Shown piece after piece: positions 5,405 through 22,987 of a stretch of 64,000 nucleotides of DNA. The stretch is from an uncultured Planctomycetales bacterium (lineage in GTDB: Bacteria; Omnitrophota; Gorgyraeia; Zapsychrales; Fredricksoniimonadaceae), in assembly GCA_964520655.1 (NCBI GenBank), contig CAZFNI010000003.1, positions 6,220 through 70,219 on the forward strand. Direction: 5' to 3'. The first letter of the stretch is position 1, and each line of letters starts with the position of its first letter. The position numbers and the translations under genes are program-made. Under the pieces are notes generated by a model. It was not told where the DNA came from and did not search any database. It saw only the letters and a program-made list of their open reading frames with translations.

Positions 5405-5935
5405 ATGGGCTTAAGGTCTCTTTTAATATATATCCTGCCTTTGTTGATCGTACTCACGATTTATTTATATATACGTCAACGACGGGCACAGAAGGATCTG
5501 GCTTTGCAAAAAGAGCAGGCGAAAGCCGGTTTAACAGAGCCGGCATCTCTGCACCCGATCATTGATCCATCCAAATGCCTTGGCTGCGGATCCTGCGCTG
5601 ATGCCTGTCCGGAGAAGAACGTCCTTGGTATCGTTGATGGGAAAGCGGCATTGATAGCGCCTACCCACTGCATCGGCCACGGGGCATGCAAGACGGCCTG
5701 TCCGATGGATGCCATCACCCTTGTTTTTGGCTCAGAAAAACGCGGGGTTGATATCCCTCTGATCCATCAGGATTTTCAAACCAATGTTCCCGGTGTTTAT
5801 ATTGCCGGGGAGTTAGGCGGCATGGGGTTGATCCGCAACGCGGTCACCCAGGGCCGGCAGGCGATGGGGGCCATCGTTGAAATGGTCAAGCGGAAAAAAA
5901 ACGGTTTTGGAAACCGTGGAGTTGCCGCAGGATGA
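5405..5935 (+). CDS. Membrane-anchored 2x[4Fe-4S] ferredoxin-domain protein carrying only the C-terminal tail of a pyridine-nucleotide oxidoreductase (possible remnant)
   Basis: N-terminal TM helix; two CxxCxxCxxxCP clusters (CLGCGSCADACP, CIGHGACKTACP); then 'VPGVYIAGELGG...' typical of the C-terminal GD-motif region of FAD/NAD(P) oxidoreductases, with no FAD/NAD Rossmann core. Confidence 0.45.
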   Translation: MGLRSLLIYILPLLIVLTIYLYIRQRRAQKDLALQKEQAKAGLTEPASLHPIIDPSKCLGCGSCADACPEKNVLGIVDGKAALIAPTHCIGHGACKTACPMDAITLVFGSEKRGVDIPLIHQDFQTNVPGVYIAGELGGMGLIRNAVTQGRQAMGAIVEMVKRKKNGFGNRGVAAG

Positions 5936-7601
5936 AGCCGGTTTAATGGAACAGGCCAAAGATGCGCTGGCCCAAGGCGAGAATGACCGGGCGGTTGAGA
6001 TCTACTTGAAGGTGCTTCTGACCGCCAGAGAGCCTGTGAAACAGAAGGCCCAAGAGTTATTAGGTCTAGCGCGTGAGCGCAACGGCCAGTTCGCTCATGC
6101 CGCCGCAGAGTACAAGAAATTTTTAGAAAGCTATCCTCAAGGGCCTGATGCCGACCGTGTGCGCCAGCGTTTGGCGGGGCTGGTGACAGCTGAACAAAAT
6201 CCCCAGGAAGCGTTGAAGGAACCATCGAAAACGCCTTTGGAGGAAATAGGGGGGGCTAAAAAAGGCCGCCAGGATACGCGCATGGCCAGCCAACCGGGGC
6301 AAGGCTGGTCGTTCCAGCATTTTGGCAGTTTTTCTCAGTTCCTTTATTGGGATAAACTCAAATCTCACGGCGGGACATCAAGATTAACTGTTAATAACCT
6401 TACCAATGATCTTGACTTAAGCGGCAAATGGAAAAGCCGGCAGACCGATGTGGGTTTTCGTTTTACTGGCGGGACAACACAGGCATTCGTGGAAGGAGCG
6501 CATGATGAGGACAGGGTCAGTGCCTTGTACGCGGATGTTAAAGTTAAGGACAAGGGGCTTTATGCCCGCGTGGGTCGCCAGTCATTGTCGACCGGCGGTG
6601 TTTTAGGTCGTTTTGACGGCATACATGTATCGAACATGATCAACAAGATGATGAAATTTAACGGGGTATTCGGATTCCCCGTTGAGAGTGTCAGGATCAC
6701 GGACATTTTGGCTAAAAAGAAGTTCATCGGAGGCAGCATTGATTGGGGTCCGTATTTAAAGCGCTGGAATTTCAATACATTTTTCATCAACCAGAATAAT
6801 AATGGGTATACGGACCGCCGGGCAATCGGTGGGGAAGCCCGATATTTCGACGCGACCAAAGCGTTGTTCTCCCTGATCGATTATGATGTGTATTTCAAGC
6901 AGATCAATATCGCGATGTTCAACGGCCATTGGACATTGCCAACCAAAACGACGTTTAACCTCTCCGGGGATTACCGTAAAAGTCCGCTGTTGATGACCAC
7001 CAATGCCATCCAGGGGATGGGCGCCAGCGAGATATCGGATTTAAAAGACCGTTTCTCAACAAAAGAGCTGCGGCAGCTGTCCCTTGACCGTACGAGCAAC
7101 AGCAAATCCATGACCGCCGGCATAAGCCAGGATATCAGGGAGAATTTCCAGTGGAACTTGGAAGGATCGGTCTCGATCATTGAAGGTACGCTGACATCTG
7201 GCGGGGTGGACGGCACTGAAACGGTCGATCATCCTGACTACACCACAACGACCGGTTTTGTCCTAAGCCGCGTGTTCAAGGATGATGACGCATTGATCAG
7301 TAATTTCAGTTTTACCGATTCATCGACAGCCAAGGATTATTCCATGAACGTGAATGTCCGCTATCCGTTGACTCCCAAGGTCCGTGTTACGCCGAAATTG
7401 ACCATGGGATACCGTGATACGAAACAATCAACTGATCATCGCTGGCTCCTCCGTCCGACGCTGCATTTTAATTACAGCATCACCCGGTCCATTGATTTTG
7501 AGATCGAGGGCGGCGTTGAATGGATCACCGAAAAGGCCTCCGGCGCCAATCAACGCTCTACGGAAGGTTTCATCACCACCGGTTATCGCATCAGTTTTTA
7601 A
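5877..7601 (+). CDS. TPR-like N-terminal segment plus outer-membrane beta-barrel-like protein with C-terminal Phe; no signal peptide, start uncertain
   Basis: C-terminus '...TTGYRISF' with alternating hydrophobic beta-strand pattern, typical of OMP barrels; N-terminal ~100 aa TPR-like helical repeat; overlaps the preceding ORF by 59 nt in another frame. Confidence 0.45.
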   Translation: MKWSSGKKTVLETVELPQDEAGLMEQAKDALAQGENDRAVEIYLKVLLTAREPVKQKAQELLGLARERNGQFAHAAAEYKKFLESYPQGPDADRVRQRLAGLVTAEQNPQEALKEPSKTPLEEIGGAKKGRQDTRMASQPGQGWSFQHFGSFSQFLYWDKLKSHGGTSRLTVNNLTNDLDLSGKWKSRQTDVGFRFTGGTTQAFVEGAHDEDRVSALYADVKVKDKGLYARVGRQSLSTGGVLGRFDGIHVSNMINKMMKFNGVFGFPVESVRITDILAKKKFIGGSIDWGPYLKRWNFNTFFINQNNNGYTDRRAIGGEARYFDATKALFSLIDYDVYFKQINIAMFNGHWTLPTKTTFNLSGDYRKSPLLMTTNAIQGMGASEISDLKDRFSTKELRQLSLDRTSNSKSMTAGISQDIRENFQWNLEGSVSIIEGTLTSGGVDGTETVDHPDYTTTTGFVLSRVFKDDDALISNFSFTDSSTAKDYSMNVNVRYPLTPKVRVTPKLTMGYRDTKQSTDHRWLLRPTLHFNYSITRSIDFEIEGGVEWITEKASGANQRSTEGFITTGYRISF

Positions 7602-7699
7602 GGGGCATTGATTTTAGTTTATTTATTACGCCTTTTATGAGATATTATCTTCTTCGAAGGTGATCTTTTAACGTGATTGAATAATATAGGAAGGTTTAT

Positions 7700-8908
7700 A
7701 TGATCTGGATCATTCTTGTGTGTGCCATTGTTTTTAGCGGCTGCCAGCAGCAGCCTCAGGAGCGTCATTATACAGAGATCGTTAACGAAGAGCCTCAGGC
7801 GGCGGCTTTAACTTCCAGCATGGACAATGACCCTCATGCGGGCATGGACATGGCGTCGATGGGTATGGGAATGGGCATGGGGATGGACGCTGGCGCAGCC
7901 GGGGGTGATTTTACCTGGGATCTGCCGGATGGGTGGCAGCAGGAGCCGGGAAAAGGTTTCCGCCTGGCGAGTTTTCATCTGGTGAGCGATGAAAAAGCCA
8001 TTGACGGGTCAATTGTGAACCTAAGCGGCGTGGCCGGCGGTTTGGAGGGGAATCTAAAGCGCTGGATGGGACAGATCGCCATGGAAACATCCGCGGAAGA
8101 CCTGGCCCGGTTGATCGCCAATGCGGCTGAATTCAAGATCAAAGCATTAGGGTCAGGCAAAGTCTTTGATTTCACGACCGTGCAGGAAAAAGGCAAGTCT
8201 GCTGATAAGAGCATGATCGTTGTGATGGTTGGTCTTCCTGAGTCGACCCTGTTCGTCAAGATGACAGGGACAATATCGACGATGAAAGCGCATAAGAACG
8301 ATTTCTTAAAGCTGGCGGCATCGATCAAAAGATCCGCGAGCCCCAAGGCGGCTACGCCCAAAATGGCGGATATGGCCAAAGGGGCAACGGATCCCCACGC
8401 GGGGATGAATATGGGCGACCCTCATGCGGGGGTCGACATGTCGGCCATGCGCGCGGATCTGCCGGTACCGACGCAGAAATTATTGGATTGGGAGGTTCCC
8501 AAGGGATGGAAACAGGGTGCTGGTCACCCCATGCGCCTGGGGACATTTCAATTAGAAGGAGACCCCAAAGCCTTTGATTGTTCTGTTATTTTATTGGGAG
8601 GTGATGCTGGCGGCGTGGAGGCAAATTTATCCCGCTGGATGGGGCAGGTCGGTGTTGCTCCCAATCCGGACAACTTGAAAAAAGCATTATCCAAGGTGCA
8701 GTCGATTAAGACCAAGGGTGGTTTGGATGCGAATGTTTATGATATCAGCGCTCTGCAAGGGGATGAGTCATCGGCGAGGAGTTTGATGGCGGGCATGATC
8801 AGCGTCGGTGGATCGACCATTTTTATCAAGATGACCGGGACCGCAGGCGTTATGCGCAAGGAGCGGGAGCATTTTGCCGACTTTATCAGGTCTTTTAAAC
8901 GCATATGA
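7700..8908 (+). CDS. His/Met-rich lipoprotein with an internally duplicated ~130-aa domain
   Basis: Lipobox 'IVFSGC'; motifs DPHAGM(D/N)M, a (GM)5 run, and two homologous domains (res ~75-215 and ~265-400) sharing 'DGS/CSVI.L.G.AGG.E.NL.RWMGQ...F.KMTGT'. Confidence 0.55.
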   Translation: MIWIILVCAIVFSGCQQQPQERHYTEIVNEEPQAAALTSSMDNDPHAGMDMASMGMGMGMGMDAGAAGGDFTWDLPDGWQQEPGKGFRLASFHLVSDEKAIDGSIVNLSGVAGGLEGNLKRWMGQIAMETSAEDLARLIANAAEFKIKALGSGKVFDFTTVQEKGKSADKSMIVVMVGLPESTLFVKMTGTISTMKAHKNDFLKLAASIKRSASPKAATPKMADMAKGATDPHAGMNMGDPHAGVDMSAMRADLPVPTQKLLDWEVPKGWKQGAGHPMRLGTFQLEGDPKAFDCSVILLGGDAGGVEANLSRWMGQVGVAPNPDNLKKALSKVQSIKTKGGLDANVYDISALQGDESSARSLMAGMISVGGSTIFIKMTGTAGVMRKEREHFADFIRSFKRI

Positions 8909-10011
8909 TCTGGTTTAGACGCCTTAGCTCATCTTATATCACCGTCATTTGTTTGCTGCTGTTGTTGATCCTGACCTTCTGGGGGACAGTTGCTCAAGTA
9001 CAGCAGGGGCTCTATGCGGCCCAGGAGCGTTTTTTTAATTCCTTATTTTTTCTCGCCGGCGGTATTCTGCCTTTTCCTGGTGCCCAGCTTGTCTTGTGGG
9101 TATTGTTCGCCAATTTGTTGGCCATGTCCGTTCTCACCTTTAAGAAATACAGCCAGTGGGTCAACTCAGGATTATTGATCACGCATCTGGGGCTGTTGTT
9201 GTATTTTGTAGCGGCGTTCATGGTCTTTCATGTCTCTCAGGAATCCGTCGTGCGTTTGGCTGTTGGAGGACAGACCAATGTGTCCTTATCCTATCATGAC
9301 TGGGAATTGGCGTATTGGAGCGGTCAAAGCAAAGAGCGTCAGGTCACATCGCTAGACACGGCTTATTTAAAGCCGGGGCATGTCATGCCTTTCTCTAATA
9401 AAGATACCGTGATCACAGTGAAAGAGTTTTTTCAAAACAGCGCTGCCTACACGGGTACTGAGGAGGGTAAGATATCCCGGATCGTCAATGCCTCCGGGAT
9501 CACGCGGATTGTGGCCAAACCGCTGTTGAAAGACAAGGAACAGAATGCTGCGGCGGTCAGTCTGGATGTAAGGGATAAGTCCAAATCCTATACGGTGATC
9601 CTGTTTGGCATGGAGGACCGCCCAACAGCGGTCGAATTAGGTGGTCAGATATATTATTTTATCCTTCGCCACAAGTCTTATCCGCTGCCCTTTAAGATCA
9701 CTTTAGATCAATTCAAGGCGGAATTCCTGCCGGGCACGTCCATGGCCAAGAATTATGAAAGTAATGTGACCATCGACACGGGGACGATAAAACGGCAAGC
9801 CCGCATTTATATGAACAATCCGTTGAAATTTAACGATTACACTCTTTATCAATCGTCCTATGATACAGACAGCACCGGCCGCCAATATTCGACGCTGGCA
9901 GTGGTCAAGAATTTTGCTAAGGTGCTTCCCTATATTGCTTGTTTGGTGGTCTTTGTTGGATTGGCGCTGCACTTTTTGATCCAGGCATTTCGAACGAAAG
10001 AGAACCCATGA
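8905..10011 (+). CDS. Cytochrome c biogenesis system II protein ResB/CcsB-like
   Basis: N-terminal TM helices, ~220-aa soluble domain, C-terminal TM; ATGA-coupled to a CcsA homolog. Confidence 0.6.
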   Translation: MIWFRRLSSSYITVICLLLLLILTFWGTVAQVQQGLYAAQERFFNSLFFLAGGILPFPGAQLVLWVLFANLLAMSVLTFKKYSQWVNSGLLITHLGLLLYFVAAFMVFHVSQESVVRLAVGGQTNVSLSYHDWELAYWSGQSKERQVTSLDTAYLKPGHVMPFSNKDTVITVKEFFQNSAAYTGTEEGKISRIVNASGITRIVAKPLLKDKEQNAAAVSLDVRDKSKSYTVILFGMEDRPTAVELGGQIYYFILRHKSYPLPFKITLDQFKAEFLPGTSMAKNYESNVTIDTGTIKRQARIYMNNPLKFNDYTLYQSSYDTDSTGRQYSTLAVVKNFAKVLPYIACLVVFVGLALHFLIQAFRTKENP

Positions 10012-11696
10012 AGATCAAGGTATTCCTACTGTCGATATTGTTATGTTGCGTTGCAGGGGTAGCTACTGTCCGGGCTGAGATCAGGGATCTGCACAGTTTT
10101 AAAAGTATCCCCATTATGGACGGGGGACGGTTAAAGCCATTGGACACCTTTGCCCGTAGTTTATTGACCCAGTTCTCCGGCAAAGATCATTATGGGAAGA
10201 AAAACGCGAGCACTTGGTTGGCGGCATTATTATTCAATCCCGACAGTACGGCTAATGATAAGGTCTTTTTGATCAATAATCCGGATATCGCGATCGCGCT
10301 AGGCATGCCGATCGATCCTCATCGACGCTATTCTCCGGCCGATGTGAAAAAAGTCTATCCCAAATTAGCGGAATTGCAGGTCCAGGCTGCGGCCATCCCG
10401 GATAAAGAGCGTTCCTTAGTGGAAAATGAGATCATGCGGGTCTTTAATAATATCAATCAATACGCGGATCTGTCGCGCGCGTTTGCGTTCGTATCTCAAG
10501 GGGATGTCAGCCCGGATCTTTGGAATGTCAAGGATATTGCGTTTTTGACCATACCGATAGGGCATGATAATCAGTGGTTAAGTCCTTGGGATGCGGTTAG
10601 GATCAATTTGATGACCGATGCCACGCGTCCTTTGGTCATGTTATGGAAAGATATGGCTGCCAGTTATTCCAAAGGCGATGCTATTAAGTTTGAGTTAGAC
10701 AGCCATACGTATTTGAATGTTGTCGCCCAGCAGCTGTCAGCCGAGGACACAAGGAATTTCAACAAGTTCTCTTTAGAGCTTCAGTATCATGCTTATAGTC
10801 CATTCACTGTCGGGATCATGTTCTATATTTTGGCGTTCATGTTCTTTTTGGTGTCTTTTTCATCTTCGAAACGCTTATGGTATTACCTGGGGCTTGGCTG
10901 CGTGATCGCGGGGTTTGTCCCGCATACGCTTGGATTGATCGCCCGCATCATCATCATGGCTCGCCCGCCGGTATCGAATTTGTATGAAACATTTATTTTT
11001 GTCGGATTTGTCGCGGTCATTTTGGGGTTATTCATTGAGTTCAATAACCGTCAGTGGCTGGGGATCGTGACCGCGGCGATCAGCGGGGCGGCAATGCTGT
11101 TTATCGCCAATAAATACAGCGCCGAGGGTGATACGTTAAAGATGCTGATCGCTGTCCTTAATTCTAATTTCTGGTTGGCAACCCATGTGACGACCATCAC
11201 CATGGGTTACGGGGCGACCTGTGTGGCGGGTGTTCTCGGTCATGTTTGGCTCTTGCAGGCAGCTGCTGGCCGACCGCAGGATGTTTTGGATAGAACATAT
11301 AGAACAACCCTGGGTATCTTGGGATTTTCGTTAACACTGACATTTTTAGGGACAAATCTCGGCGGTGTTTGGGCGGATCAGAGCTGGGGGCGTTTCTGGG
11401 GGTGGGACCCTAAAGAGAATGGGGCGCTGATGATCGTGCTGTGGGTGGCGATCCTGTTACATGCGAAAGTAGCCCGGATGATCGACGCGCTGGGAATGGC
11501 GGTCGGCTGCGTCGTCGGTATGCTGATTGTGATGTGGGCCTGGTTCGGGGTTAATCTTTTAAGCGTCGGACTGCATTCCTATGGATTCACTCAAGGGGTA
11601 GCCACGACCCTGATTGTTTATGCTGTTTTGGAGTTGGTGTTCATTGCCGTGACCGCGTGGGTGATCACAGGGCGCAGATCCTCCCAAACCCTTTAA
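10008..11696 (+). CDS. ccsA: Cytochrome c-type biogenesis protein CcsA (ResC) with a ~270-aa N-terminal periplasmic extension
   Basis: Trp-rich WWD signature 'WGRFWGWDPKENGALM' plus conserved His in flanking TM helices; signal peptide MKIKVFLLSILLCCVAG; the ORF-track start at 9939 is replaced by ATG 10008 overlapping the upstream stop. Confidence 0.7.
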   Translation: MKIKVFLLSILLCCVAGVATVRAEIRDLHSFKSIPIMDGGRLKPLDTFARSLLTQFSGKDHYGKKNASTWLAALLFNPDSTANDKVFLINNPDIAIALGMPIDPHRRYSPADVKKVYPKLAELQVQAAAIPDKERSLVENEIMRVFNNINQYADLSRAFAFVSQGDVSPDLWNVKDIAFLTIPIGHDNQWLSPWDAVRINLMTDATRPLVMLWKDMAASYSKGDAIKFELDSHTYLNVVAQQLSAEDTRNFNKFSLELQYHAYSPFTVGIMFYILAFMFFLVSFSSSKRLWYYLGLGCVIAGFVPHTLGLIARIIIMARPPVSNLYETFIFVGFVAVILGLFIEFNNRQWLGIVTAAISGAAMLFIANKYSAEGDTLKMLIAVLNSNFWLATHVTTITMGYGATCVAGVLGHVWLLQAAAGRPQDVLDRTYRTTLGILGFSLTLTFLGTNLGGVWADQSWGRFWGWDPKENGALMIVLWVAILLHAKVARMIDALGMAVGCVVGMLIVMWAWFGVNLLSVGLHSYGFTQGVATTLIVYAVLELVFIAVTAWVITGRRSSQTL

Positions 11697-11820
11697 GTAT
11701 TTCTACGCTATTGCCTTACGTATATCTTCGGATTTTCATTTATTCATTTCCTATCTATAGTAGCTAGTTATTTTTCTTATACCATATATTGTGGTTTTCA
11801 TTCATTTCAAGGAGGGGATT

Positions 11821-13923
11821 ATGGCCATCGCGGTATTCACCAAGATCATCAAGCGCAACGGCAGGGTCGAGGATTTCAATCCAACCAAGATCACCAATGC
11901 GATCGCCAAAGCCGGAGAGATCACCGGTGAATTCGGGGTAGAGATGGCCCAGAAAATGACGGTGAGGGTTTTAAACATCGCCCAGCAGATGTTCGATGAG
12001 AATCCAACCGTGGAGGGCATTCAGGACATCGTCGAGGATGTGCTACTTTCATCGCCCTACCGCAAGACCGCTAAGGCTTATATCCTGTACCGTCAGCAGC
12101 ACGCGGAAATGCGCGAGATCGTCTCGCGTTTTAACACCGACTTGGTCGACAAATATTTAAATCAGCATGATTGGCGGGTCAATGAGAACAGCAACATGGC
12201 CTATTCCCTCCAGGGGCTCAATCACTATGTCTCCTCGGAAGTCAGCAAGCTTTATTGGCTTAACCGCATTTATCCCGCCGCTGTCAAAGAAGCGCATCAA
12301 CGCGGGGATTTTCATATTCATGATCTGGGGTTGCTCAGCGTGTACTGCGTCGGCTGGGATCTTCAGGACTTGCTCACCGTCGGGTTTAAAGGTGTTTCTG
12401 GAAAAATGGAAAGCAAGCCGCCTAAACATTTTCGCGCGGCCTTAGGGCAGATCGTTAATTTCTTCTATACGCTGCAAGGGGAGGCGGCCGGCGCCCAGGC
12501 CTTCTCGAATTTTGATACCTTGCTCGCGCCTTATATCCGTTTCGACAAGCTTTCTTACGACGAGGTCAAGCAAGCGCTGCAGGAATTCATTTTTAACGTC
12601 AATGTGCCGACCCGCGTCGGATTTCAGACGCCGTTTACGAACATCACGATGGATTTGACCGTTCCCAGTTATTACAAGGACCAGGGCGTCATTATCGGCG
12701 GGGTTGTGCAGAAAGAAACATATGGCGAATTTAAACAAGAGTTGGATATGTTCAATAAAGCGTTTTTAGAGGTGATGCTCGAAGGCGATGCCAAGGGACG
12801 GGTTTTCACTTTCCCGATCCCAACCTACAACATGACCAAGGATTTCAATTGGGAGAACCCCAATCTCGATCTGTTGTGGAAGATGACCGCGAAATACGGC
12901 ATCCCGTATTTTTCTAATTTCATCAATTCCGACATGAACCCCGAAGATGCCCGCAGCATGTGCTGCCGTCTGCGTCTGGATAACCGCGAATTGCGTAGCC
13001 GCGGCGGCGGTTTGTTCGGTGCCTCGCCGCTGACCGGGTCGATCGGGGTGGTGACCATCAATTTGCCGCGTTTAGGGTATACGGCCAACAATGAAGAAGA
13101 ATTTTTCGGTCAGCTCAAGCGCGTCATGGACTTAGCCAAAGACAGTTTGGAAATGAAGCGCAAGGTCTTAGAGAAATTGACCGACGAGAATCTGTATCCC
13201 TATATCAAATTCTATCTGCGCAACATCAAAGGGCGTTTCAACCAATACTGGAAGAATCATTTCTCCACCATCGGATTGCTGGGAATGAACGAAGCCTGCT
13301 TGAATTTGCTGGGAGAGGATATTGCCTCGGATAAGGGCAAAGCGTTCGCGGTCAAGACGCTGGAATATATCCGGGACGTTTTAGTCGATTATCAAAAAGA
13401 GACGGGCAATATCTTTAATTTGGAAGCAACACCGGCGGAAGGAACGTCCTACAGCCTGGCCAAATTGGACAAGGCCATGTACCCGCAGATCCAATGCGCC
13501 AATGAGCATGAGTACACGCAAGGCCATGAACCGTTTTATTCTAATTCCACCCATTTGCCCGTCGGGCATACGGAGGATGTGTTTACCGCGCTGGACCATC
13601 AGGATGACCTGCAGACGCTCTACACCGGCGGCACGGTGCTCCATGGTTTTGTCGGGGAAAAGATCGATAATGCGCAAGGACTCAAATGCCTGATCAAAAC
13701 GATCTGCACCCAATATCGTTTGCCCTATTTTACCATCACGCCGACCTTTAGTGTCTGCCCCAGCTGCGGCTACCTGGCGGGGGAACACCCGACTTGCATG
13801 CATTGCGCCAGTGAATGTGAAGTTTATTCGCGCGTCGTGGGATATTTAAGGCCGGTCAAACAGTGGAACAAAGGTAAAAAAGAAGAATTCGCAGAGCGCA
13901 AGACTTACCAGATATGCGTATAG
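11821..13923 (+). CDS. nrdD: Anaerobic ribonucleoside-triphosphate reductase (class III)
   Basis: N-terminal ATP-cone (VFTKIIKRNGRVEDFNPTKI); C-terminal zinc ribbon CPSCGY...CMHC; glycyl-radical motif 'RVVGYLRP'; SD 'aaggagggg' before ATG 11821. Confidence 0.85.
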   Translation: MAIAVFTKIIKRNGRVEDFNPTKITNAIAKAGEITGEFGVEMAQKMTVRVLNIAQQMFDENPTVEGIQDIVEDVLLSSPYRKTAKAYILYRQQHAEMREIVSRFNTDLVDKYLNQHDWRVNENSNMAYSLQGLNHYVSSEVSKLYWLNRIYPAAVKEAHQRGDFHIHDLGLLSVYCVGWDLQDLLTVGFKGVSGKMESKPPKHFRAALGQIVNFFYTLQGEAAGAQAFSNFDTLLAPYIRFDKLSYDEVKQALQEFIFNVNVPTRVGFQTPFTNITMDLTVPSYYKDQGVIIGGVVQKETYGEFKQELDMFNKAFLEVMLEGDAKGRVFTFPIPTYNMTKDFNWENPNLDLLWKMTAKYGIPYFSNFINSDMNPEDARSMCCRLRLDNRELRSRGGGLFGASPLTGSIGVVTINLPRLGYTANNEEEFFGQLKRVMDLAKDSLEMKRKVLEKLTDENLYPYIKFYLRNIKGRFNQYWKNHFSTIGLLGMNEACLNLLGEDIASDKGKAFAVKTLEYIRDVLVDYQKETGNIFNLEATPAEGTSYSLAKLDKAMYPQIQCANEHEYTQGHEPFYSNSTHLPVGHTEDVFTALDHQDDLQTLYTGGTVLHGFVGEKIDNAQGLKCLIKTICTQYRLPYFTITPTFSVCPSCGYLAGEHPTCMHCASECEVYSRVVGYLRPVKQWNKGKKEEFAERKTYQICV

Positions 13924-14534
13924 GCGGTTTTCAGAAGCTGACCTTAGTTGATTATCCAGGCAAAGCCGCAGCGACAGTGTTCACCCAAGGGTGCAACTTT
14001 CGCTGCGGCTACTGTCATAACGCCGAACTGGTCATCCCTGAGTTTTTTTGTGAACCGATCCCTTCCCAGGAAGTTCTGGAATTCCTTAAGACCAGGCGCG
14101 GCAAATTGGAAGGGGTCGTGATCAGTGGCGGTGAGCCGACCATTCAACAAGGCCTCGATGAGTTCATTGTTTCGCTCAAGGCCATGGGATTTTCCCTCAA
14201 ACTGGATACTAACGGAAGCAGGCCGGATGTTCTGTCGTCGTTGATAGAGCGCCAGTTGATCGATTTCATCGCCATGGATATCAAAACATCACTGGAAAAA
14301 TACCCCGCTCTCATCCAGGTCCCCTGCGATATGGCCTTCATTAAGCGCAGCATTGATCTCATCCAACAAAGCGGTCTGCCGCATCAATTCCGCACCACGG
14401 TGATCAAAGGATTTGATCTCCCCCAAGACCGCCAAGCCATTGCTTCACTGATCAACGGCAGCGCAGATCATGTTCGCCAGTCTTTTAAAGTCTCACCTAA
14501 GATGGTTGATCCCGAATTCGCAAGAATCGCTTAA
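13914..14534 (+). CDS. nrdG: Anaerobic ribonucleotide reductase activating protein (radical SAM)
   Basis: 'GCNFRCGYCHN' CxxxCxxC motif; overlaps the nrdD stop. Confidence 0.8.
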   Translation: MRIGGFQKLTLVDYPGKAAATVFTQGCNFRCGYCHNAELVIPEFFCEPIPSQEVLEFLKTRRGKLEGVVISGGEPTIQQGLDEFIVSLKAMGFSLKLDTNGSRPDVLSSLIERQLIDFIAMDIKTSLEKYPALIQVPCDMAFIKRSIDLIQQSGLPHQFRTTVIKGFDLPQDRQAIASLINGSADHVRQSFKVSPKMVDPEFARIA

Positions 14535-14548
14535 AGAGTATTGTAAAA

Positions 14549-14594
14549 ATAGAAAGAGATGCTAAAATTCTTGCCAGTAATAGACTCTTTCTAT
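14549..14594 (+). promoter_or_regulatory. 10-bp inverted repeat ATAGAAAGAG-N26-CTCTTTCTAT spanning the nrdG to kinase intergenic region; right arm overlaps the kinase ATG
   Basis: Perfect arms at 14549-14558 and 14585-14594; no T-run, so more likely an operator or start-codon-sequestering hairpin than a terminator. Confidence 0.3.
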
Positions 14595-15648
14595 GGAAAA
14601 GAATATAGATAATATAGACCTGCAAAGATCCCTCAAAGAGCTGGCGGATATGAAATTCGCGCTCGATGCGGCCTCCATTGTCGCGATCACGGACCGCAAA
14701 GGTGATATCATTTACGTGAATGATAAATTCTGTCAGATCTCTAAGTACAACAGGAATGAGCTCTTAGGTAAAAATCATCGCATCATCAATTCCGGTTATC
14801 ACCCCAAAGAATTTTTCAAGGACATGTGGCGCACTATCATGGTTGGCAAAGTTTGGAAGGGGGAGATCTGCAATAAAGCCAAAGACGGCAGTTTATATTG
14901 GGTGGATTCGACCATTGTGCCCTTCCTCAATGAAAAGGGTCTCCCGTATCAGTATTTGTCCATCCGCAATGAGGTCACGGCCCGCAAACTCATGGAAGAA
15001 CAGCTCAAGGCTCTCCCCAAGCGCATTATCCAGGCGCAGGAAAGCGAATGTAACCGCATTGCTCGTGATATCCATGATGATCTGGGGCAGTCTTTGGCCA
15101 CGCTTAAGATGATGATCCAGTCGTCTCTAGTCGAAACGGCCAAGAATGCGCGGCATGATAAGGACTCGGTGCGTATCCTCGAATATTTGAACGGTATCAT
15201 CGATCGTTCCCGGGGGCTGGCGACCCGCCTGCGTCCATCGACGCTGGAGGTGCTTGGACTTTCAACCGCGATCAAGCTGCTGGCGAGGGATATTAGTCAC
15301 TCAAAAAAATTTAAAGTGCATTTTTCTTCAATTTCTACCAACGGCCTGCAATTTGAGGGAGAGGCGATCAATGTTTTCCGCATTGTCCAGGAAGCCTTGT
15401 CCAATAGCATGAAACATGCCAGGGCAAGCAAGGTCAATGTGCGCATGGCCCGGCGTCAAGGCCGGTTTAAAGTTGTCATTGAAGATAATGGCCGAGGGTT
15501 TAAGGCCAATGACAAAAGTTTGGGGCTGGGGCTTGTGACCATGAAAGAGAGGGCCAAGCTGTTGGGCGGTTCTATTGATATTCGATCGATCGTCGGTAAA
15601 GGAACGATCATTTCTTTAGATATTCCTGTAAAGGATAAGGCTGTATGA
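14593..15648 (+). CDS. PAS-domain sensor histidine kinase (HisKA_3/NarX-DegS type)
   Basis: PAS segment (ITDRKGDIIYVNDKFCQISKY...), H-box 'ARDIHDDLGQSLATLKM', HATPase N/G boxes (EALSNSMKHA, IEDNGRGF, GLGLVTMKERA). Confidence 0.75.
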   Translation: MEKNIDNIDLQRSLKELADMKFALDAASIVAITDRKGDIIYVNDKFCQISKYNRNELLGKNHRIINSGYHPKEFFKDMWRTIMVGKVWKGEICNKAKDGSLYWVDSTIVPFLNEKGLPYQYLSIRNEVTARKLMEEQLKALPKRIIQAQESECNRIARDIHDDLGQSLATLKMMIQSSLVETAKNARHDKDSVRILEYLNGIIDRSRGLATRLRPSTLEVLGLSTAIKLLARDISHSKKFKVHFSSISTNGLQFEGEAINVFRIVQEALSNSMKHARASKVNVRMARRQGRFKVVIEDNGRGFKANDKSLGLGLVTMKERAKLLGGSIDIRSIVGKGTIISLDIPVKDKAV

Positions 15649-16289
15649 AAACCATCAGGGTGATCTTAGCCGATGATCATGAAATGTTCCGCTCGGGTTT
15701 AAAAGCCCTGCTGGACAAGGAGCCGGATTTCAAGGTCGTGGCACAGGCACAGGACGGCGAGCAGCTGTTGGAGAAATTGGCCTCTGCGGTATGCGACTGT
15801 GTGGTCATGGACTTAAGCATGCCAAATCTCGATGGTTTGGCGGCGCTTAAAGAGATAGAACAGAAGTACCCCAAGACAAAATGCCTGGTACTGACCATGC
15901 AGAAGGACGAAGAGCATTTTAAAAAAGCCATGGCCCACGGGGCAAAGGGGTATATCCTTAAAGACAGAGCGTTTGATTCGCTGGTCGTGGCCATTAAGAC
16001 GGTCATCCGGGGAAAATCGTTCGTGTCGCCGTCCATTTCGGATATTATCACCCGGCAATTTGTCAGCTCCATCCGAGAGGGGGACAGTCCGTCCCTGGAA
16101 TTATTAACGCCCCGGGAGAAAGAAATATTGAAGCTGATCGCCCTGGGGGCGGCCAATAAGAATATTGCCACAAGGCTTAAGATCAGTATCCGCACTGTTG
16201 AAACTCATCGCAGTCATTTGATCCATAAGCTAGGGCTGAAAACGACAGCGGCGTTAGTCAAGTATGCGATGTCTAAAGGGATCGTTTAG
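15645..16289 (+). CDS. NarL/FixJ-family response regulator (REC + LuxR HTH)
   Basis: Receiver (RVILADDHEMFR...DLSMPNLDG) and LuxR-type HTH 'LTPREKEILKLIALGAANKNIATRLKISIRTVETHRSHLIHKLG'; ATGA-coupled to the kinase. Confidence 0.8.
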   Translation: MKTIRVILADDHEMFRSGLKALLDKEPDFKVVAQAQDGEQLLEKLASAVCDCVVMDLSMPNLDGLAALKEIEQKYPKTKCLVLTMQKDEEHFKKAMAHGAKGYILKDRAFDSLVVAIKTVIRGKSFVSPSISDIITRQFVSSIREGDSPSLELLTPREKEILKLIALGAANKNIATRLKISIRTVETHRSHLIHKLGLKTTAALVKYAMSKGIV

Positions 16290-16357
16290 CCGGATTACGT
16301 GTTTCTACGTAGGGTTATCCGTATAATGTCGCATATAATGAAATCTTCATTTCTTTT

Positions 16358-16744
16358 ATGATGTCTTCTATGTCAAAAACCATTTTGATCGTGGAAGACC
16401 ATAAAGACTTCAGAAAAGAAGTCAGGCATTTTTTAGAAGTCAGCAAAGTGGATGCCCGTTTAGTGGAAGCAGCGTCGGGTGAGGAAGGGGTTTTAGTCGC
16501 AAAGGAAACGCGGCCGCAGATCGTCCTCATGGATTTTTGGCTGGGCGGTCTAAACGGCATCGACGCAGCGGCGCAGATCAAGGAAACAGTGCCAGGCTGT
16601 TCCATCATCATGCTGACGATGTTTGACACAAAAGAGATCGGGAAGCTGAACACCAGGAACCACATTAAAACGTTCATTAATAAAGGGGATCTTTTCAAGC
16701 AGTTGATCCCCAGCCTTAAAAAGATATTGAATTCGGTCAATTAG
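16358..16744 (+). CDS. Single-domain response-regulator receiver (CheY-like)
   Basis: 'ILIVEDHKDFRKEV...VLMDFWLGGLNGID...K' receiver pattern. Confidence 0.6.
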   Translation: MMSSMSKTILIVEDHKDFRKEVRHFLEVSKVDARLVEAASGEEGVLVAKETRPQIVLMDFWLGGLNGIDAAAQIKETVPGCSIIMLTMFDTKEIGKLNTRNHIKTFINKGDLFKQLIPSLKKILNSVN

Positions 16745-16763
16745 TCATTTTTCAAGGAGCAGC

Positions 16764-17816
16764 ATGAAAATTTTGGCGATAGGCTTAAACCACCGAACAT
16801 CTTCTATTGATCTTAGAGAGAAATTCTATGTCAGCCCCCAGGAACGGGAGCTGCTGATCGCGCAGTTCAAAACGGATGCCCAAGTCATGTCCGCTGTTGT
16901 TCTCTCCACCTGCAACCGCTGCGAGATCTATGCCAATGTCGTCGATGATTGCGAGCCTAAGCATATCATCCAAATGCTTTTTACCTTAAAACACCTGCCG
17001 CTGGATGATCAATATGTGAAAATGTTCTACACGCTGCAGGGTCCGGAGGCTGTCACCCATTTTCTGGAGGTCGCCTGCGGTCTGGATTCACTGATCCTGG
17101 GGGAGAAGCAGATCCTTGGGCAGATCAAGGAAGCGGTCGGTGTTTCCCGCGAAAAAGGATTGATGGACAAAACACTCAATATCCTCACCAACTATGTTTT
17201 AGAGACAGGCAAAAAAGCCCGGCAGGACACCCAGATCGATTTTGGCGGGATGTCGGTCAGCGCCGCAGCGGTCTCAACGGCCCAGGCAATGCTTGGTTCG
17301 TTGCAGGATAAAAGCGTTTTGGTCGTCGGCTCCGGTAAGATGGGAGCGCTGGCGCTCAATTATCTTCACCAAAAGAAAGCCAAAAAGATCTATTTGATGA
17401 ACAGGACTTTAGAGAATGCCGCCGCGCTGGCTCAAGAAGTAAAGGCGGAGGTTGTGCCTTTCTGGAACATGAAAGAGGTGCTCGCCGAGGTGGATGTGTG
17501 TATTTGCTCCTCGGGCGCTCCGCATTATCTGATCACCAAAGATCTCATGGAAAATGTGGCCCTGGCGCGCCAAACTCCGGTCATTTTGATCGATATTTCG
17601 ATGCCGCGCAACATTGATCCCGCCGTTGCCGGGATCAGCGGTGTCACGTTAGTTGAGCTGGATGATTTAGACAAGGTCATCGAACGCACGGTGTTAACAC
17701 GTCAAGATGCGGTCAAGGAAGTGGCGGCACTTGTCATTCGCAAAAGGGAAGAATTTTATAATGCCATGGCAAAGATCGAGGCCATGGCCGGTCAACAGGT
17801 TTTAATGTCATCTTAA
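16764..17816 (+). CDS. hemA: Glutamyl-tRNA reductase (short form, 350 aa)
   Basis: 'STCNRCEIY' catalytic Cys motif, 'GLDSLILGE', NADPH-binding 'VVGSGKMG'. Confidence 0.75.
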   Translation: MKILAIGLNHRTSSIDLREKFYVSPQERELLIAQFKTDAQVMSAVVLSTCNRCEIYANVVDDCEPKHIIQMLFTLKHLPLDDQYVKMFYTLQGPEAVTHFLEVACGLDSLILGEKQILGQIKEAVGVSREKGLMDKTLNILTNYVLETGKKARQDTQIDFGGMSVSAAAVSTAQAMLGSLQDKSVLVVGSGKMGALALNYLHQKKAKKIYLMNRTLENAAALAQEVKAEVVPFWNMKEVLAEVDVCICSSGAPHYLITKDLMENVALARQTPVILIDISMPRNIDPAVAGISGVTLVELDDLDKVIERTVLTRQDAVKEVAALVIRKREEFYNAMAKIEAMAGQQVLMSS

Positions 17817-18148: not shown

Positions 18149-18892
18149 ATGAAAGTCCACCATCTCATCATTGTTGTCTTAAGCTTGTTCCTGGCTTTTG
18201 TTAAGCCTGCTTTTGCGTTGGATGCAAGATCCCAGGAACTTGTCAGGACAGCGACATATGTCGGTTCCGAGACATGTGCCACCTGTCACGAGAAGGAGTC
18301 TAGGCAATTTAAGCTATCCACCCACGCGCGTATTTCCAATGACGCCAATGAGGGCACGGCCCAGGGGTGTGAAATGTGTCACGGACCTGGCAGTGTCCAC
18401 GCGGATGCTAACGGAGGCAAAGGCAGCATCATTAATCCGAAAAAAGATCCGAGCATTTGTTTCACCTGCCATACAGAGAAGCGCGCGGAATTTAATCTGC
18501 CTTACCGTCATCCGGTTCTCGAGGGTAAGATGAGCTGTTCTGACTGCCACAGCCCGCATGGCGAAGAAGTTAAGCCCTGGAGTTCCACCAGCATGAATGA
18601 TGCCAATGAAGCCTGCTTCAAATGCCATAAGGAACAGCAGGGACCGTTCGTGTGGGAACATGAAGCCACGCGCGACGGCTGTTCTAGCTGCCATAAAGTG
18701 CATGGTTCGGTTAATGACAAAATGTTGATCGCCAGGGATTCCAACCTGTGTTTGCGTTGTCATACGCAGACGAATTTCCAGACGATCGGTAAGTCAAACC
18801 ATAACGGCCGCCTGAACCACGCGAGCTGTTTCACCGCCGGATGTCACACAGCGGTGCATGGATCGAACTTTGATGATCACTTACGGTATTAA
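18149..18892 (+). CDS. Periplasmic multiheme (8-heme) c-type cytochrome, MtrA/MtoA/OmaB-like
   Basis: Signal peptide; 7 CxxCH (CATCH, CEMCH, CFTCH, CSDCH, CFKCH, CSSCH, CLRCH) plus one Cx4CH (CFTAGCH); short inter-heme spacing typical of MtrA-type wires. Confidence 0.75.
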   Translation: MKVHHLIIVVLSLFLAFVKPAFALDARSQELVRTATYVGSETCATCHEKESRQFKLSTHARISNDANEGTAQGCEMCHGPGSVHADANGGKGSIINPKKDPSICFTCHTEKRAEFNLPYRHPVLEGKMSCSDCHSPHGEEVKPWSSTSMNDANEACFKCHKEQQGPFVWEHEATRDGCSSCHKVHGSVNDKMLIARDSNLCLRCHTQTNFQTIGKSNHNGRLNHASCFTAGCHTAVHGSNFDDHLRY

Positions 18893-18909
18893 GGCCAAAG
18901 GAGCGCAGT

Positions 18910-20979
18910 ATGAATAAACCACAATCATATAAGTTTTTCAGCAGTTTGCTGGCGTGTGTGATCGCCTTGAGCTTTACGGCTTATGGCGTGCACGCTCAGG
19001 AAACCTCGAATCCGGTGAACATCACCCTGATGCCGTTTGCGATCACCACGGTTAAAGGCGATGCCCAGAAATTCAGGGCCATGCACTGGATCAACGACGG
19101 GTATTCTTATGGGATCAAAGACCTCACCATTGAGGATAGTTCCAATAAGAACGCCAATGTGTCCTTGGAAGCGCATTCTATTCCAAATGATTACGATAAT
19201 GCGCTTGACTTAACCTTAACTAAGGAAAATGTCGGTTATGTCAAGACGGATTATGCGTCGTTCCGTAAGTATTACGACGGGACCGGCGGTACGTATTATC
19301 CGCACACCACGTTTAGCGCGTTAACGCTGGAAGATGATCTTAAGATGGACATGCAGCATATGTTCGTTGAGATCGGTTCCAAGACGGCGGATGATCCTGG
19401 CGTGGCTGTCGCTTTTGAGCGCCACAGCAAGGATGGTCGTAAATCCAGGCTGGCTTGGACGGCGGTGAAATTCGGGTCTGTGACCCGCGACATTGGTCCG
19501 ACCTGGCAGGATGTAGAGGAAGTCACTGATGCTGTTGCCTTAAAAGGCAACGGTGAAGTGGCTGGCTTTAATGTCGGCGCTGAACAGAAATTCGAGTTTA
19601 CCCACATCAAGTCGCTGCGCGAGGAAAAATTTCTCAGCGCGGCCGGCGGGGTGAGCTCTGATACGAAAATGCGCCGCCAGTGGCAGGATCCTCAGACGGA
19701 TCTGTACACAACGACCTTGAAAGGCGACCGCTGGTTTAACAATGACAAGAACCATTTGTCATTAGGGTACCGTTACAGCAATCTTGAAAACAGTGAATTG
19801 GAGAATTTAAGGGAATACACTGCTGCTGGGGTTCCTAATAATTATTCCAATCCTAAAAGTGCGATCAACGCGTATGCCAAAAATCGCTATAATGCGCATA
19901 CGACGGTAGGGAGTTTTATGTCTCAGCTTGGTAAGGATCTGAATTTCATTACCAAGATGAAAGCGGAGGTGCTAAACCGTAGGGGCACGTCCGCCTATCC
20001 GCATGATACAACGTCGGGCGCACCGGACGGGATCATCAATACGACGGATGTGAGCACGACCGAGAATAAGATCTACCGATTAGGAGAGAATTTCTCCTTG
20101 CGCTATAATGGGATTTCTAAGACAAGTCTCTATAGCGAAGTTGAGATGGAGCAAACACGCAACTGGTTAACCGAAGAGAGAAACAGCATCGCAGGACAGT
20201 CTGCTGCTGAGGCGGGCGAACAATTAGGGCGCGAGACGATCACCCATGTCCAGAACTTGGTTGCGACCGCGGGTGCCCGCTATGTTCCCTCAAAGGCATT
20301 AAGCATCACGACACAGGTCCGTCATAAACTCAACAACAATGATTATGACGACGTTATTGAAACAGTGTATGCATCCGGTTCAAAATCCGCCTTCGTTGAT
20401 GCGGTCAAGACCCGGGGGGATGAGTTGACAACAAAAGTCTCCTGGAAGCCGGTCAACAGGGTGGAAGGGGTTTTCCGTTATAAGCTCAGCGACACTAAGT
20501 ATATGCCCAGAGTGGAGAGCCAGGAAGAAACCAAGTCCCGCGGATTAAGCAATGTCTTCGGGTATGATCTAAACTTGCAGCCGACGGATCCGTTGTTCGT
20601 GACCCTGTCTTTTTCTCAGGATTTCAGCAACGTGACCACGCCGGCGGGGGCGAGCACATCATTGCAGTACCCCGGATTTAGATCGAATTCCAATAATTGG
20701 TTGATGGCCACCAGTTATATGATCAATGAGAAATGGAGCCTCAACAGCTCGTTCCAATACACGTTGATCAAGAATTTCAACGACGTGACCTCGACTTTGC
20801 TGCCTTATGCTGCGGACAGCAAGAGTTACGATGGGGCTGTGGGATTGTCATGGAGCGTGAACAAGTCCTTGACCGTGTCACCACATTACGGTTATTATGC
20901 GTATAAGCCAAACAGCATGGCGGAATCAGGCGCATATAATGCCCAAGTGGTGTGGTTGGATGCGAAGTTATTATGGTAA
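18910..20979 (+). CDS. Outer-membrane beta-barrel porin (689 aa), MtrB/MtoB/OmbB-like partner of the upstream cytochrome
   Basis: Signal peptide (…SFTAYGVHA/QE); long amphipathic beta-strand pattern; C-terminal '...WLDAKLLW' aromatic terminus; genomic context. Confidence 0.6.
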   Translation: MNKPQSYKFFSSLLACVIALSFTAYGVHAQETSNPVNITLMPFAITTVKGDAQKFRAMHWINDGYSYGIKDLTIEDSSNKNANVSLEAHSIPNDYDNALDLTLTKENVGYVKTDYASFRKYYDGTGGTYYPHTTFSALTLEDDLKMDMQHMFVEIGSKTADDPGVAVAFERHSKDGRKSRLAWTAVKFGSVTRDIGPTWQDVEEVTDAVALKGNGEVAGFNVGAEQKFEFTHIKSLREEKFLSAAGGVSSDTKMRRQWQDPQTDLYTTTLKGDRWFNNDKNHLSLGYRYSNLENSELENLREYTAAGVPNNYSNPKSAINAYAKNRYNAHTTVGSFMSQLGKDLNFITKMKAEVLNRRGTSAYPHDTTSGAPDGIINTTDVSTTENKIYRLGENFSLRYNGISKTSLYSEVEMEQTRNWLTEERNSIAGQSAAEAGEQLGRETITHVQNLVATAGARYVPSKALSITTQVRHKLNNNDYDDVIETVYASGSKSAFVDAVKTRGDELTTKVSWKPVNRVEGVFRYKLSDTKYMPRVESQEETKSRGLSNVFGYDLNLQPTDPLFVTLSFSQDFSNVTTPAGASTSLQYPGFRSNSNNWLMATSYMINEKWSLNSSFQYTLIKNFNDVTSTLLPYAADSKSYDGAVGLSWSVNKSLTVSPHYGYYAYKPNSMAESGAYNAQVVWLDAKLLW

Positions 20980-20987
20980 ATTGATCC

Positions 20988-22983: not shown

Positions 22984-22987
22984 GATA

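Follow-up and report, generated by a model that had tools for sequence, protein, structure and literature searches.

A tandem PsbP/Mog1-fold lipoprotein encoded with ccsB and ccsA across bacterial phyla suggests a third component of the system II cytochrome c synthase

The lipoprotein gene and its partners ccsB and ccsA

The DNA considered here (hereafter the window) is a 64,000 nt stretch of contig CAZFNI010000003.1 (assembly GCA_964520655.1), from an uncultured bacterium placed by GTDB in the Omnitrophota, and it contains a gene for a predicted lipoprotein of 402 aa directly upstream of ccsB (resB) and ccsA, the two genes of a system II cytochrome c synthase. The three reading frames are joined by two ATGA overlaps, the stop codon of the lipoprotein gene overlapping the start codon of ccsB at 8905–8908, and that of ccsB overlapping the start codon of ccsA at 10008–10011. 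This coupling had been pointed out in the first-pass annotation of the window, which was made from the sequence without database searches and suggested that the protein may be a periplasmic metal or heme chaperone for cytochrome maturation. The same order of three genes recurs across several phyla, and this conserved synteny suggests an unrecognised third component of the cytochrome c synthase. The features of the three genes are as follows, with the support for each in parentheses.

7688..7694, + strand: ribosome-binding site AGGAAGG, 5 nt before the ATG (read from the sequence)
7700..8908, + strand: tandem PsbP-fold lipoprotein gene, 402 aa, stop codon included (open reading frame and homologues)
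7700..7744, + strand: lipoprotein signal peptide MIWIILVCAIVFSG with the predicted lipid-modified Cys15 (lipobox VFSGC)
7745..7789, + strand: short conserved segment after the lipobox cysteine, QQQPQERHYTEIVNE (homologue N-termini; AlphaFold2 predicted local distance difference test, pLDDT, ~60)
8905..10011, + strand: ccsB/resB, 368 aa, ATGA overlap with the lipoprotein gene (Pfam ResB, 9e-14)
9184-9186, + strand: candidate transmembrane heme-ligand His94 of CcsB, within LITHLG (putative role)
10008..11696, + strand: ccsA, 562 aa from the ATG at 10008, ATGA overlap with ccsB (Cytochrom_C_asm, 4e-22)
11385..11408, + strand: WWD heme-handling motif WGRFWGWD of CcsA, aa 460–467 (aligns with 7S9Y)
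11184-11186, 11460-11462 and 11574-11576, + strand: conserved His393, His485 and His523 of CcsA (align with 7S9Y)

The N-terminus of the lipoprotein, MIWIILVCAIVFSGC, terminates in the lipobox, and VFSGC agrees with the pattern expected of a bacterial lipoprotein, i.e. a signal peptide followed by [LVI][ASTVI][GAS]C with a conserved cysteine. Cys15 does not vary across 70 aligned full-length homologues, and 74 of 81 members of the wider family have a lipobox-like motif, in keeping with the initial reading of the product as a lipoprotein. The short segment that follows the cysteine is retained in most family members, the Verrucomicrobiota counterpart being (V/I)KVYRVAKE. A scan of positions 7400–12000 for promoters and terminators returned counts at chance level, and hence the boundaries of the operon are drawn from gene spacing only.

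The product of ccsB possesses, by hydropathy, hydrophobic segments at approximately aa 4–111 and 331–364, which flank a periplasmic domain of ~220 aa. The third hydrophobic segment harbours the candidate ligand histidine, and residues 240–353 align to residues 210–321 of the fused CcsBA of Helicobacter hepaticus (7S9Y). For ccsA, the start was derived from gene calls on a related Logan contig, L001, together with the window sequence. Its product matches TIGR03144 (the CcsB model) at 5.5e-39 and 134 bits, under that model's cut-off of 187.6 bits, and comprises an N-terminal signal or transmembrane segment, a periplasmic domain of ~235 aa and then the Cytochrom_C_asm core. Residues 30–538 align to residues 403–912 of 7S9Y (E 3e-31), with the WWD motif and all three histidines matching identical residues in that structure. 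By reference to published work on CcsBA, these histidines would represent the two periplasmic heme ligands and the second transmembrane one.

Taken as a pair, ResB and CcsA amount to 930 aa and together span the fused CcsBA, including both of its periplasmic domains, with a short ResB and a long CcsA that resemble a fused CcsBA split in two. As this coverage extends to the WWD motif and the histidines, the synthase is complete without the lipoprotein, which is an addition to it and not a replacement for any part. The lipoprotein was also considered as a stand-in for a missing periplasmic portion of the short ResB, and this was ruled out because ResB and CcsA already span CcsBA.

Domains and linkers of the lipoprotein

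Downstream of the signal peptide, the protein is composed of two linkers, each of which precedes a folded domain.

7745..7900, + strand: linker 1, disordered, aa 16–67 (AlphaFold2 pLDDT <50 for aa 30–64)
7829..7852, + strand: motif DPHAGMDM in linker 1, aa 44–51
7859..7885, + strand: MGMGMGMGM run in linker 1, aa 54–62
7901..8335, + strand: PsbP/Mog1-fold domain 1, aa 68–212 (iterated hidden Markov model, HMM, boundaries; pLDDT >90; Foldseek)
8336..8473, + strand: linker 2, disordered, aa 213–258 (AlphaFold2 pLDDT <50 for aa 216–251 in the full model)
8390..8413, + strand: motif DPHAGMNM in linker 2, aa 231–238
8417..8440, + strand: motif DPHAGVDM in linker 2, aa 240–247
8474..8905, + strand: PsbP/Mog1-fold domain 2, aa 259–402 (HMM boundaries; AlphaFold2; Foldseek)

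Comparison of the two halves of the lipoprotein by BLASTP gives 37% identity over 139 aa (E 2e-33). The tandem duplication seen at first (approximately 35% identity) is thus upheld; the domain size of ~130 aa given with it is not, as HMM boundaries place each domain at ~145 aa. Structure prediction, which had been proposed as a check, was performed with a 70-sequence alignment, and the resulting full-length AlphaFold2 model contains two confident domains (pLDDT >90). A second model, restricted to linker 2 and domain 2, returned the same domain at a pLDDT of ~97. When domain 2 was compared with solved structures using Foldseek, the top match was CyanoP (2XB3; E 3.6e-6, probability 1.0, target-normalised template modelling (TM) score 0.57). 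Further PsbP-type matches across the two Foldseek searches were 2LNJ, 9GNW_P and 9GRX. The top lists of both searches consist purely of proteins with the PsbP/Mog1 fold, i.e. cyanobacterial and plant PsbP, CyanoP, PsbP-like subunits of NDH, LpqN, MTC28, Apa, DcrB, EagT6, SciW, Tsi3 and Mog1, with probabilities of 1.0, E-values down to 3.6e-6, target-normalised TM scores of 0.45–0.57 and 10–15% identity. Each domain is accordingly predicted, with high confidence, to adopt the PsbP/Mog1 fold, an alpha/beta arrangement in which helices flank a central antiparallel sheet and which is not known from metallochaperones or heme chaperones. Scans of Pfam and NCBIfam yielded no match to PsbP (PF01789), DUF1795/DcrB, LpqN or Mog1 at E <= 0.1, and a sequence search of the PDB with the lipoprotein returned nothing useful, such that the predicted relationship to PsbP is one of fold only and lies beyond sequence methods. 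A sub-threshold match to PKD_6 at aa 70–87 was discarded as spurious. Also set aside was a thiol-redox role of the ResA/CcsX type, since no CxxC motif can be read in the lipoprotein sequence, where the sole invariant cysteine is that of the lipobox, and since the predicted fold is PsbP-like rather than that of thioredoxin.

Both domains retain a common signature, conserved at >80–95%, which consists of P.GW, an arginine that opens the next strand, L.G..GG...N..RW..Q across a loop and the first helix, F.K(M).G in a late strand, and a phenylalanine and a serine in the last helix. Across 294 proteins, the conserved residues of domain 1 are P76, W79, R88, G113-G114, N118, R121, W122, Q125, F185, K187 and G190, and those of domain 2 are P267, W270, R279, G304-G305, N309, R312, W313, Q316, F375, K377 and G380, the shared positions exceeding 95% conservation in both. 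The core motif initially described, L.G.AGG.E.NL.RWMGQ...KMTGT, was read correctly, and most of it is conserved family-wide. Within the domains, these 294 proteins share no conserved His, Cys or Tyr, and the Met of F.KM.G is retained at ~80% in domain 1 and less so in domain 2. A helical wheel places N118, R121 and Q125 next to a hydrophobic face formed by L115, L119, W122 and M123, which suggests a polar groove where the helix packs on the edge of the sheet.

The linkers together contain 98 residues, of which 14 are Met and four are His, and DPHAG motifs occur in both, so that the His/Met-rich linker reported before each domain is indeed present. The run described as '(GM)5' was slightly miscounted, in that it has five Met alternating with four Gly. 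No equivalent of this run was found in the homologue sequences inspected at full length; a few Verrucomicrobiota linkers have short GM runs. In the model of linker 2 with domain 2, the linker reaches a pLDDT of 51–59, and the DPHAG-bearing segment stays undocked. DPHAG occurs three times in the lipoprotein and in no other open reading frame (ORF) of >=60 aa when the window is translated in all six frames. Neither DPHAG nor LPxGHPxI was found in other ORFs, be it of the window or of related loci totalling 0.97 Mb. When the full text of the literature was searched for 'DPHAG', unrelated word fragments only were returned.

The His/Met motif is carried by 111 of the 120 closest homologues and by just 12 of 81 members of a wider genome scan, and is thus a clade-specific feature, mainly restricted to an Omnitrophota-type clade. 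Many Verrucomicrobiota members display an alternative motif, LP(P/S)(G/S)HP(P/D)I, sometimes followed by DMGMG (for example L066, 127–1344, with three repeats, and L024, L040 and L045), and S(A/D)ERFG is often seen in Planctomycetota and Hydrogenedentota (P0109, P0110, L044 and L054). In a sample of 297 members that is biased towards close relatives, 100 carry none of the three motif classes and 33 (11%) have no linker histidine at all.

It is possible that the linkers of the window protein bind metal or heme, since H..M.M resembles Cu(I) ligand sets. Taken further, the protein would be primarily a periplasmic copper chaperone or sponge, in which the linkers bind Cu(I) and either protect the reduced CXXCH thiols at the synthase or supply or remove metal, with the domains as a scaffold only. 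The three H-x-x-M-x-M motifs and the MGMGMGMGM run, which resemble the Met/His Cu(I) motifs of CopA/PcoA, CopB, Ctr1 and CueO, speak for such a role, as do the near-uniform presence of the motif amongst the closest homologues and the parallel pattern of His followed by DMGMG in some Verrucomicrobiota linkers. Periplasmic copper is, moreover, known to impair c-type cytochrome assembly specifically (PMC4600104). Nevertheless, copper binding by a motif that most members lack cannot account for the conserved linkage of the family to ccsBA. None of the conserved residues (R, N, Q, K, W and F) is a metal ligand, the fold is unlike that of known copper chaperones, and no cop or cus genes are nearby, the P1B ATPase 18 kb away scoring as a Zn/Cd-type enzyme. 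A primary copper function is thus unlikely; local shielding from copper by the linkers is plausible within the Omnitrophota-type clade, but is not the function that defines the family. With regard to that ATPase, the gene at 26591–28441 (+) encodes a P1B-type heavy-metal ATPase of 616 aa in which no N-terminal metal-binding domain is obvious. When it was checked as a possible copper pump, its score was above the Cd/Zn subfamily cut-off and below that for copper.

The conserved basic and aromatic residues of both domains also permit a reading of the lipoprotein as a periplasmic heme chaperone comparable to CcmE. Here the domain groove, with its Arg, Lys, Asn, Gln and Trp residues, would bind heme propionates and the porphyrin ring, an axial ligand would come from a linker His or the Met of F.KM.G, and heme would be held at, or passed to, the WWD site. 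Membrane tethering in the periplasm, as for CcmE, the recurrence of His-containing linker motifs in several clades and the tight linkage to heme and cytochrome genes all accord with this. Set against it are the absence of any invariant His, Tyr or Cys, the incomplete retention of the F.KM.G Met, the 11% of members that lack a linker His and a fold unrelated to the OB (oligonucleotide/oligosaccharide-binding) fold of CcmE; PsbP-fold proteins, moreover, are not known to bind heme. CcsBA also channels heme itself to the WWD site, and a chaperone has been stated to be unnecessary (PMC13645880; PMC10663686). Because CcsBA is stated to need no chaperone and no heme ligands are conserved, we regard this role as improbable. 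Overall, the metal or heme chaperone activity that the first-pass annotation put forward is not borne out as the core function. Of the two findings that, only in combination, had been named in advance as refuting it, a match to a domain without a metal role was obtained, at fold level only, and loss of the linkage to ccsBA was not, the linkage being retained.

Conservation and genomic context of the three genes

An initial homologue search returned 208 proteins, with every named one annotated as 'hypothetical'. A profile search of 1.84 billion representatives, clustered at 50% identity, retrieved 11,195 clusters (E <= 0.001), with 8,594 remaining when the limit is set to E <= 1e-10; for ten further clusters that were inspected, names were again only 'hypothetical', and the family is missing from Pfam and NCBIfam. 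Members display one (~220–260 aa), two (~400 aa) or three (566–591 aa) domains. A scan of one genome per species located the family in at least 575 genomes, mostly of Verrucomicrobiota, Planctomycetota, Omnitrophota and Lentisphaeria, with some in Hydrogenedentota, Sumerlaeota, Elusimicrobiota and others. Those nearest to the window protein (59% identity and below) are labelled Omnitrophota, which makes this phylum the probable source of the window. The nearest match of domain 1 is a domain 1 of another protein in 286 of 294 cases, and the same is true of domain 2 for 277 of 294. The duplication is ancient, with the two domain types each orthologous across phyla. Single-domain forms are mostly of the domain-2 type (32 of 39), and three-domain forms are mostly arranged as domain 1, domain 1, domain 2. 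All genomic contexts are from metagenome-assembled genomes, and some taxonomic labels are doubtful. Several of the genomes behind L020, L032, L055, L061, L069 and L079, all with the three genes, carry the label 'Bifidobacteriaceae' or 'Akkermansia muciniphila'. By sequence they look like environmental Verrucomicrobiota, and these labels are probably wrong.

Co-occurrence with ccsBA in other genomes, a further check proposed at the outset, was assessed in two ways. Seven annotated contexts were examined, i.e. that of the window's own protein, two single-domain members from Omnitrophota, one each from Planctomycetota and Hydrogenedentota, a three-domain form and another single-domain form. In all seven the lipoprotein gene is followed by ResB (333–400 aa) and then CcsA (522–702 aa), and the flanks beyond this trio are unrelated. 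Amongst 80 loci from species-level genomes, the best-scoring of at least 575 hits, 64 have >=2.5 kb of downstream sequence, and in 61 of these tblastn with the window ResB and CcsA places ccsB and ccsA directly downstream on the same strand. These loci span Omnitrophota, Verrucomicrobiota, Planctomycetota, Lentisphaeria, Hydrogenedentota, Elusimicrobiota and others. The three remaining loci are L061, which harbours two tandem trios, L070, in which ResB is ~0.8 kb away, and L036, in which the neighbour encodes a GT9 protein. Both trios of L061 (1324–10122) are complete, and their paralogues are 38% (lipoprotein), 42% (ResB) and 53% (CcsA) identical; the two sets have diverged together, following duplication of the trio as a unit. 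All-against-all clustering of neighbouring ORFs recovers the lipoprotein in 80 of 80 loci and ccsB/ccsA in 78 of 80, with the next real cluster limited to 14 loci. The three genes are therefore a module that is conserved across phyla at 25–30% protein identity, and the link to cytochrome c maturation drawn at first from the window alone holds well beyond it.

Such conservation bears directly on the idea of an envelope lipoprotein unrelated to cytochrome c biogenesis, with a role in lipid or cell-wall handling and retained in the operon for regulatory or historical reasons. DcrB, LpqN and MTC28, the closest bacterial structural relatives, act in envelope biogenesis, and the gene in L036 adjoins that of a GT9 heptosyltransferase without ccsBA. 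However, a gene order kept across phyla at such low identity, duplication of the trio as a unit and the lack of any other conserved neighbour are hard to explain without a shared function, and we consider an unrelated envelope role very improbable.

Beyond the trio, the window continues with nrdD, a radical-SAM ORF (13914–14534), a PAS histidine kinase, presumed response-regulator ORFs and hemA. The radical-SAM ORF is taken as nrdG, encoding the NrdD activase, on the basis of its position and a matching Radical_SAM gene in L004, and the response-regulator ORFs were placed by their position in L004 and L006. The order of trio, nrdD, nrdG, PAS histidine kinase, LuxR-type regulator, single-domain regulator, hemA and cytochrome is shared by the window, L004 and L006, the ORFs of the window at 11791–17816 (+) having been matched to these loci by position, with a Pfam basis for the kinase and hemA only.

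A multiheme-cytochrome module lies 9–16 kb downstream of the trio at 18149–25000 (+), and consists of a 7-CXXCH protein, a 689-aa ORF that matches no Pfam or NCBIfam family, a 6-CXXCH protein resembling NapC/NirT/NrfH, an ORF of 156 aa and an 11-CXXCH–cytochrome b561 fusion. Homologues of this module are located <=6 kb from the trio in at least 23 of the 80 loci, mostly of Verrucomicrobiota; L024, L027, L033, L035, L040, L046, L048, L051, L055, L057, L065, L068, L084, L085, L087 and L091 are amongst them. The module may be conserved as a unit of respiration or of extracellular electron transfer, and may serve the synthase as a dedicated substrate. In addition, hemN-hemE-hemY is directly upstream of the trio in L012, and hemA and multiheme cytochromes are near it in the window, L004 and L006. 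These heme and cytochrome associations are looser than the linkage to ccsBA, yet they put the trio in a heme and cytochrome context.

The proximity of this module raises the question of whether the lipoprotein is an assembly or stability factor for the multiheme-cytochrome respiratory unit rather than for the synthase, chaperoning or anchoring products such as a porin-cytochrome-like complex, with a shared pathway accounting for its position beside ccsBA. PsbP-fold proteins are typically assembly factors of electron-transfer complexes, and the homologues found close to the trio include those of the 7-heme protein, the NapC/NirT-like protein, the 11-heme–b561 fusion and the 689-aa ORF. The ccsBA linkage is, however, far tighter, being adjacent and often overlapping in 61 of 64 loci, as opposed to ~23 of 80 with variable position and orientation, and many contexts of the trio have no such module within the flanks retrieved. 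A factor devoted to the cytochromes is hence decidedly unlikely.

With regard to close relatives of the window, the lipoprotein gene in L001 is 100% nucleotide-identical to that described here, and the two loci are mosaic around it. Upstream sequence is 99.6% identical, followed by 1.5–1.8 kb that is non-homologous (window 5891–7430; L001 4702–6537); downstream of this break, identity is 94.5%, then 100% over the lipoprotein gene, 97.5% next and 88.9% in nrdD. A Fer4/Pyr_redox gene is shortened to 176 aa in the window, compared with 402 aa in L001, and is followed by a 574-aa tetratricopeptide repeat (TPR)-containing ORF in the former and a Sel1/ankyrin gene in the latter. This mosaicism reflects either strain recombination or assembly chimerism. 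The comparison had been considered as a synonymous/non-synonymous test of selection, and was set aside as it displays mosaicism and not selection.

Proposed role and comparison with known systems

Considering the strict linkage, it is very probable that the lipoprotein works in, or with, system II cytochrome c biogenesis. Our favoured reading, to which we give an even chance, is that it would be an extrinsic periplasmic partner of the CcsB–CcsA synthase with a role in docking or substrate handling. It is suggested by the combination of a lipid anchor, two distinct PsbP-fold domains with a polar signature and the linkage to ccsB and ccsA, and draws on analogy with proteins of the same fold. Other lipid-anchored or extrinsic proteins with the PsbP/Mog1 fold are positioned at the outer surface of membrane complexes or bind segments that are unfolded or hydrophobic, examples being CyanoP/PsbP (photosystem II), the PsbP-like subunits of NDH, LpqN (MmpL transporters), DcrB and the Eag chaperones; the fold is known for docking, assembly and chaperone roles.

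From the gene structure, duplication, predicted fold, family size, synteny and motif distribution described above, we infer a sequence of steps in which each is conditional, as are a physical association with CcsBA, the membrane that carries the anchor and any binding of substrate, heme or metal. The lipoprotein would be made from the same transcript as ccsB and ccsA, as the ATGA overlaps of stop and start codons imply, and its signal peptide would lead to membrane anchoring via Cys15. Flexible linkers of ~50 and ~45 residues would then carry the two PsbP/Mog1-fold domains, which, by analogy, may dock onto CcsB and CcsA at the periplasmic domains or else hold unfolded apocytochrome. In this position the domains could help to present CXXCH sites to the WWD active site, or to release the product. 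The DPHAG(M/L)DM linker motifs would be a lineage-specific addition, most likely binding a soft metal such as Cu(I), or alternatively providing transient ligation of heme iron.

Several observations weigh against the lipoprotein as an extrinsic partner of the synthase. The fold match is distant, at 10–15% identity and a root-mean-square deviation of 5–7 Å, and the family profile identified no PsbP-like chain amongst PDB sequences at E <= 10. The linkage covers only the 80 best-scoring of the at least 575 hits, and L036 (4198–6657), where a two-domain member is followed by the GT9 heptosyltransferase without ccsB/ccsA, is the sole clear exception to the synteny. The residue after the lipobox cysteine is Gln, not Asp, on account of which the lipoprotein could be sorted to the outer membrane. 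The conserved basic and polar set could likewise bind a small anionic ligand, such as heme propionates, rather than a protein. Finally, CcsBA of Helicobacter is reported to export heme and attach it unaided (reviewed in PMC10663686), so that the mechanism does not call for a third component, and the part played by one could be subtle or conditional.

A stronger version of the partner role would have system II of the PVC (Planctomycetes–Verrucomicrobia–Chlamydiae) superphylum and allied lineages as a three-component machine, in which the tandem PsbP-fold lipoprotein is an extrinsic subunit that cannot be dispensed with and acts at the CcsBA active site as a chaperone of heme or of apocytochromes, large multiheme ones in particular. 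This is doubtful at present; if it were true, the lipoprotein would be the functional counterpart of CcmI/CcmE that system II was thought to lack, and DPHAGMDM and LPxGHPxI would be transient ligands of heme iron or Cu(I).

System II is regarded as a minimal cytochrome c synthase, consisting of CcsBA and thiol-redox helpers, for which the recognition, threading and release of substrates, above all multiheme ones, and the role of the beta-cap chamber are live questions. The literature consulted on this system, covering CcsB/CcsA, the periplasmic beta-cap chamber and the thiol-redox helpers, describes no such lipoprotein or PsbP-like component, and a search for papers that pair PsbP with CcsA/CcsB found none linking them. 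A third protein of docking or chaperone fold, present across phyla, would be a genetically tractable handle on substrate handling, and the linkage gives a first functional context to a family of ~11,000 clusters without a name in any source. Planctomycetota (including cytochrome-rich lineages), Verrucomicrobiota and Omnitrophota rely heavily on c-type cytochromes, and the finding is thus of relevance when their multiheme proteins are expressed in other hosts. Its His/Met linkers could also reveal how the maturation machine is shielded from copper.

Amongst known systems, CyanoP, PsbP and PsbP-like proteins are the best structural matches to the domains (2XB3 at the head), and CyanoP, too, is a lipoprotein, which associates with a cofactor-bearing membrane complex on the outer (positive) face of an energy-transducing membrane. 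The window lipoprotein differs in its marginal sequence identity, without a Pfam PsbP match or a profile match to solved structures, in its tandem two-domain form with long disordered, motif-bearing linkers, and in the linkage of its family to ccsBA, not photosystem genes, in non-photosynthetic lineages; none of the lineages that carry it is known to be an oxygenic phototroph. The same fold is found in the lipoproteins DcrB (DUF1795) and LpqN, in secreted MTC28 and in the Eag/SciW chaperones of type VI effectors. Several of these are envelope lipoproteins that serve inner-membrane machines, or chaperones of hydrophobic or unfolded segments, but these have no detectable sequence relationship to the present family, which is set apart by its ccsBA context and duplicated domain.

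The linkers display H..M.M and MGMGM patterns similar to those of CopI, CusF, CopC, PCuAC and the Met-rich CopA/PcoA and CueO, and CopI is known to protect cytochrome c assembly from copper (PMC4600104). In contrast to these copper-binding proteins, the motifs of the lipoprotein lie in disordered linkers of one clade and not in a metal site of a folded beta-sandwich, cupredoxin-like or OB domain, next to a different fold and without linkage to copper-resistance genes, and the lipoprotein has no Pfam or NCBIfam match to the CusF, CopC, PCuAC or CopI families. When compared with system II as described (CcsB/ResB with CcsA/ResC, CcdA and CcsX/ResA), the pair in the window is complete, with the WWD motif and conserved histidines, and the lipoprotein is an additional, lineage-restricted third gene product that lacks CxxC and so is not a thiol-redox component. 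In system I, the folds of CcmE (an OB barrel) and CcmI (TPR) are unrelated to that of the lipoprotein, which has neither the covalent heme motif HxxxY that CcmE bears in a flexible C-terminal tail nor an invariant His or Tyr, its His motifs being N-terminal to the domains and clade-specific. CcmE, as a heme chaperone, and CcmI, as an apocytochrome chaperone, are nonetheless likewise membrane-tethered periplasmic helpers encoded with a WWD-family machine, and they offer a possible functional analogy for the lipoprotein in the handling of substrate or heme.

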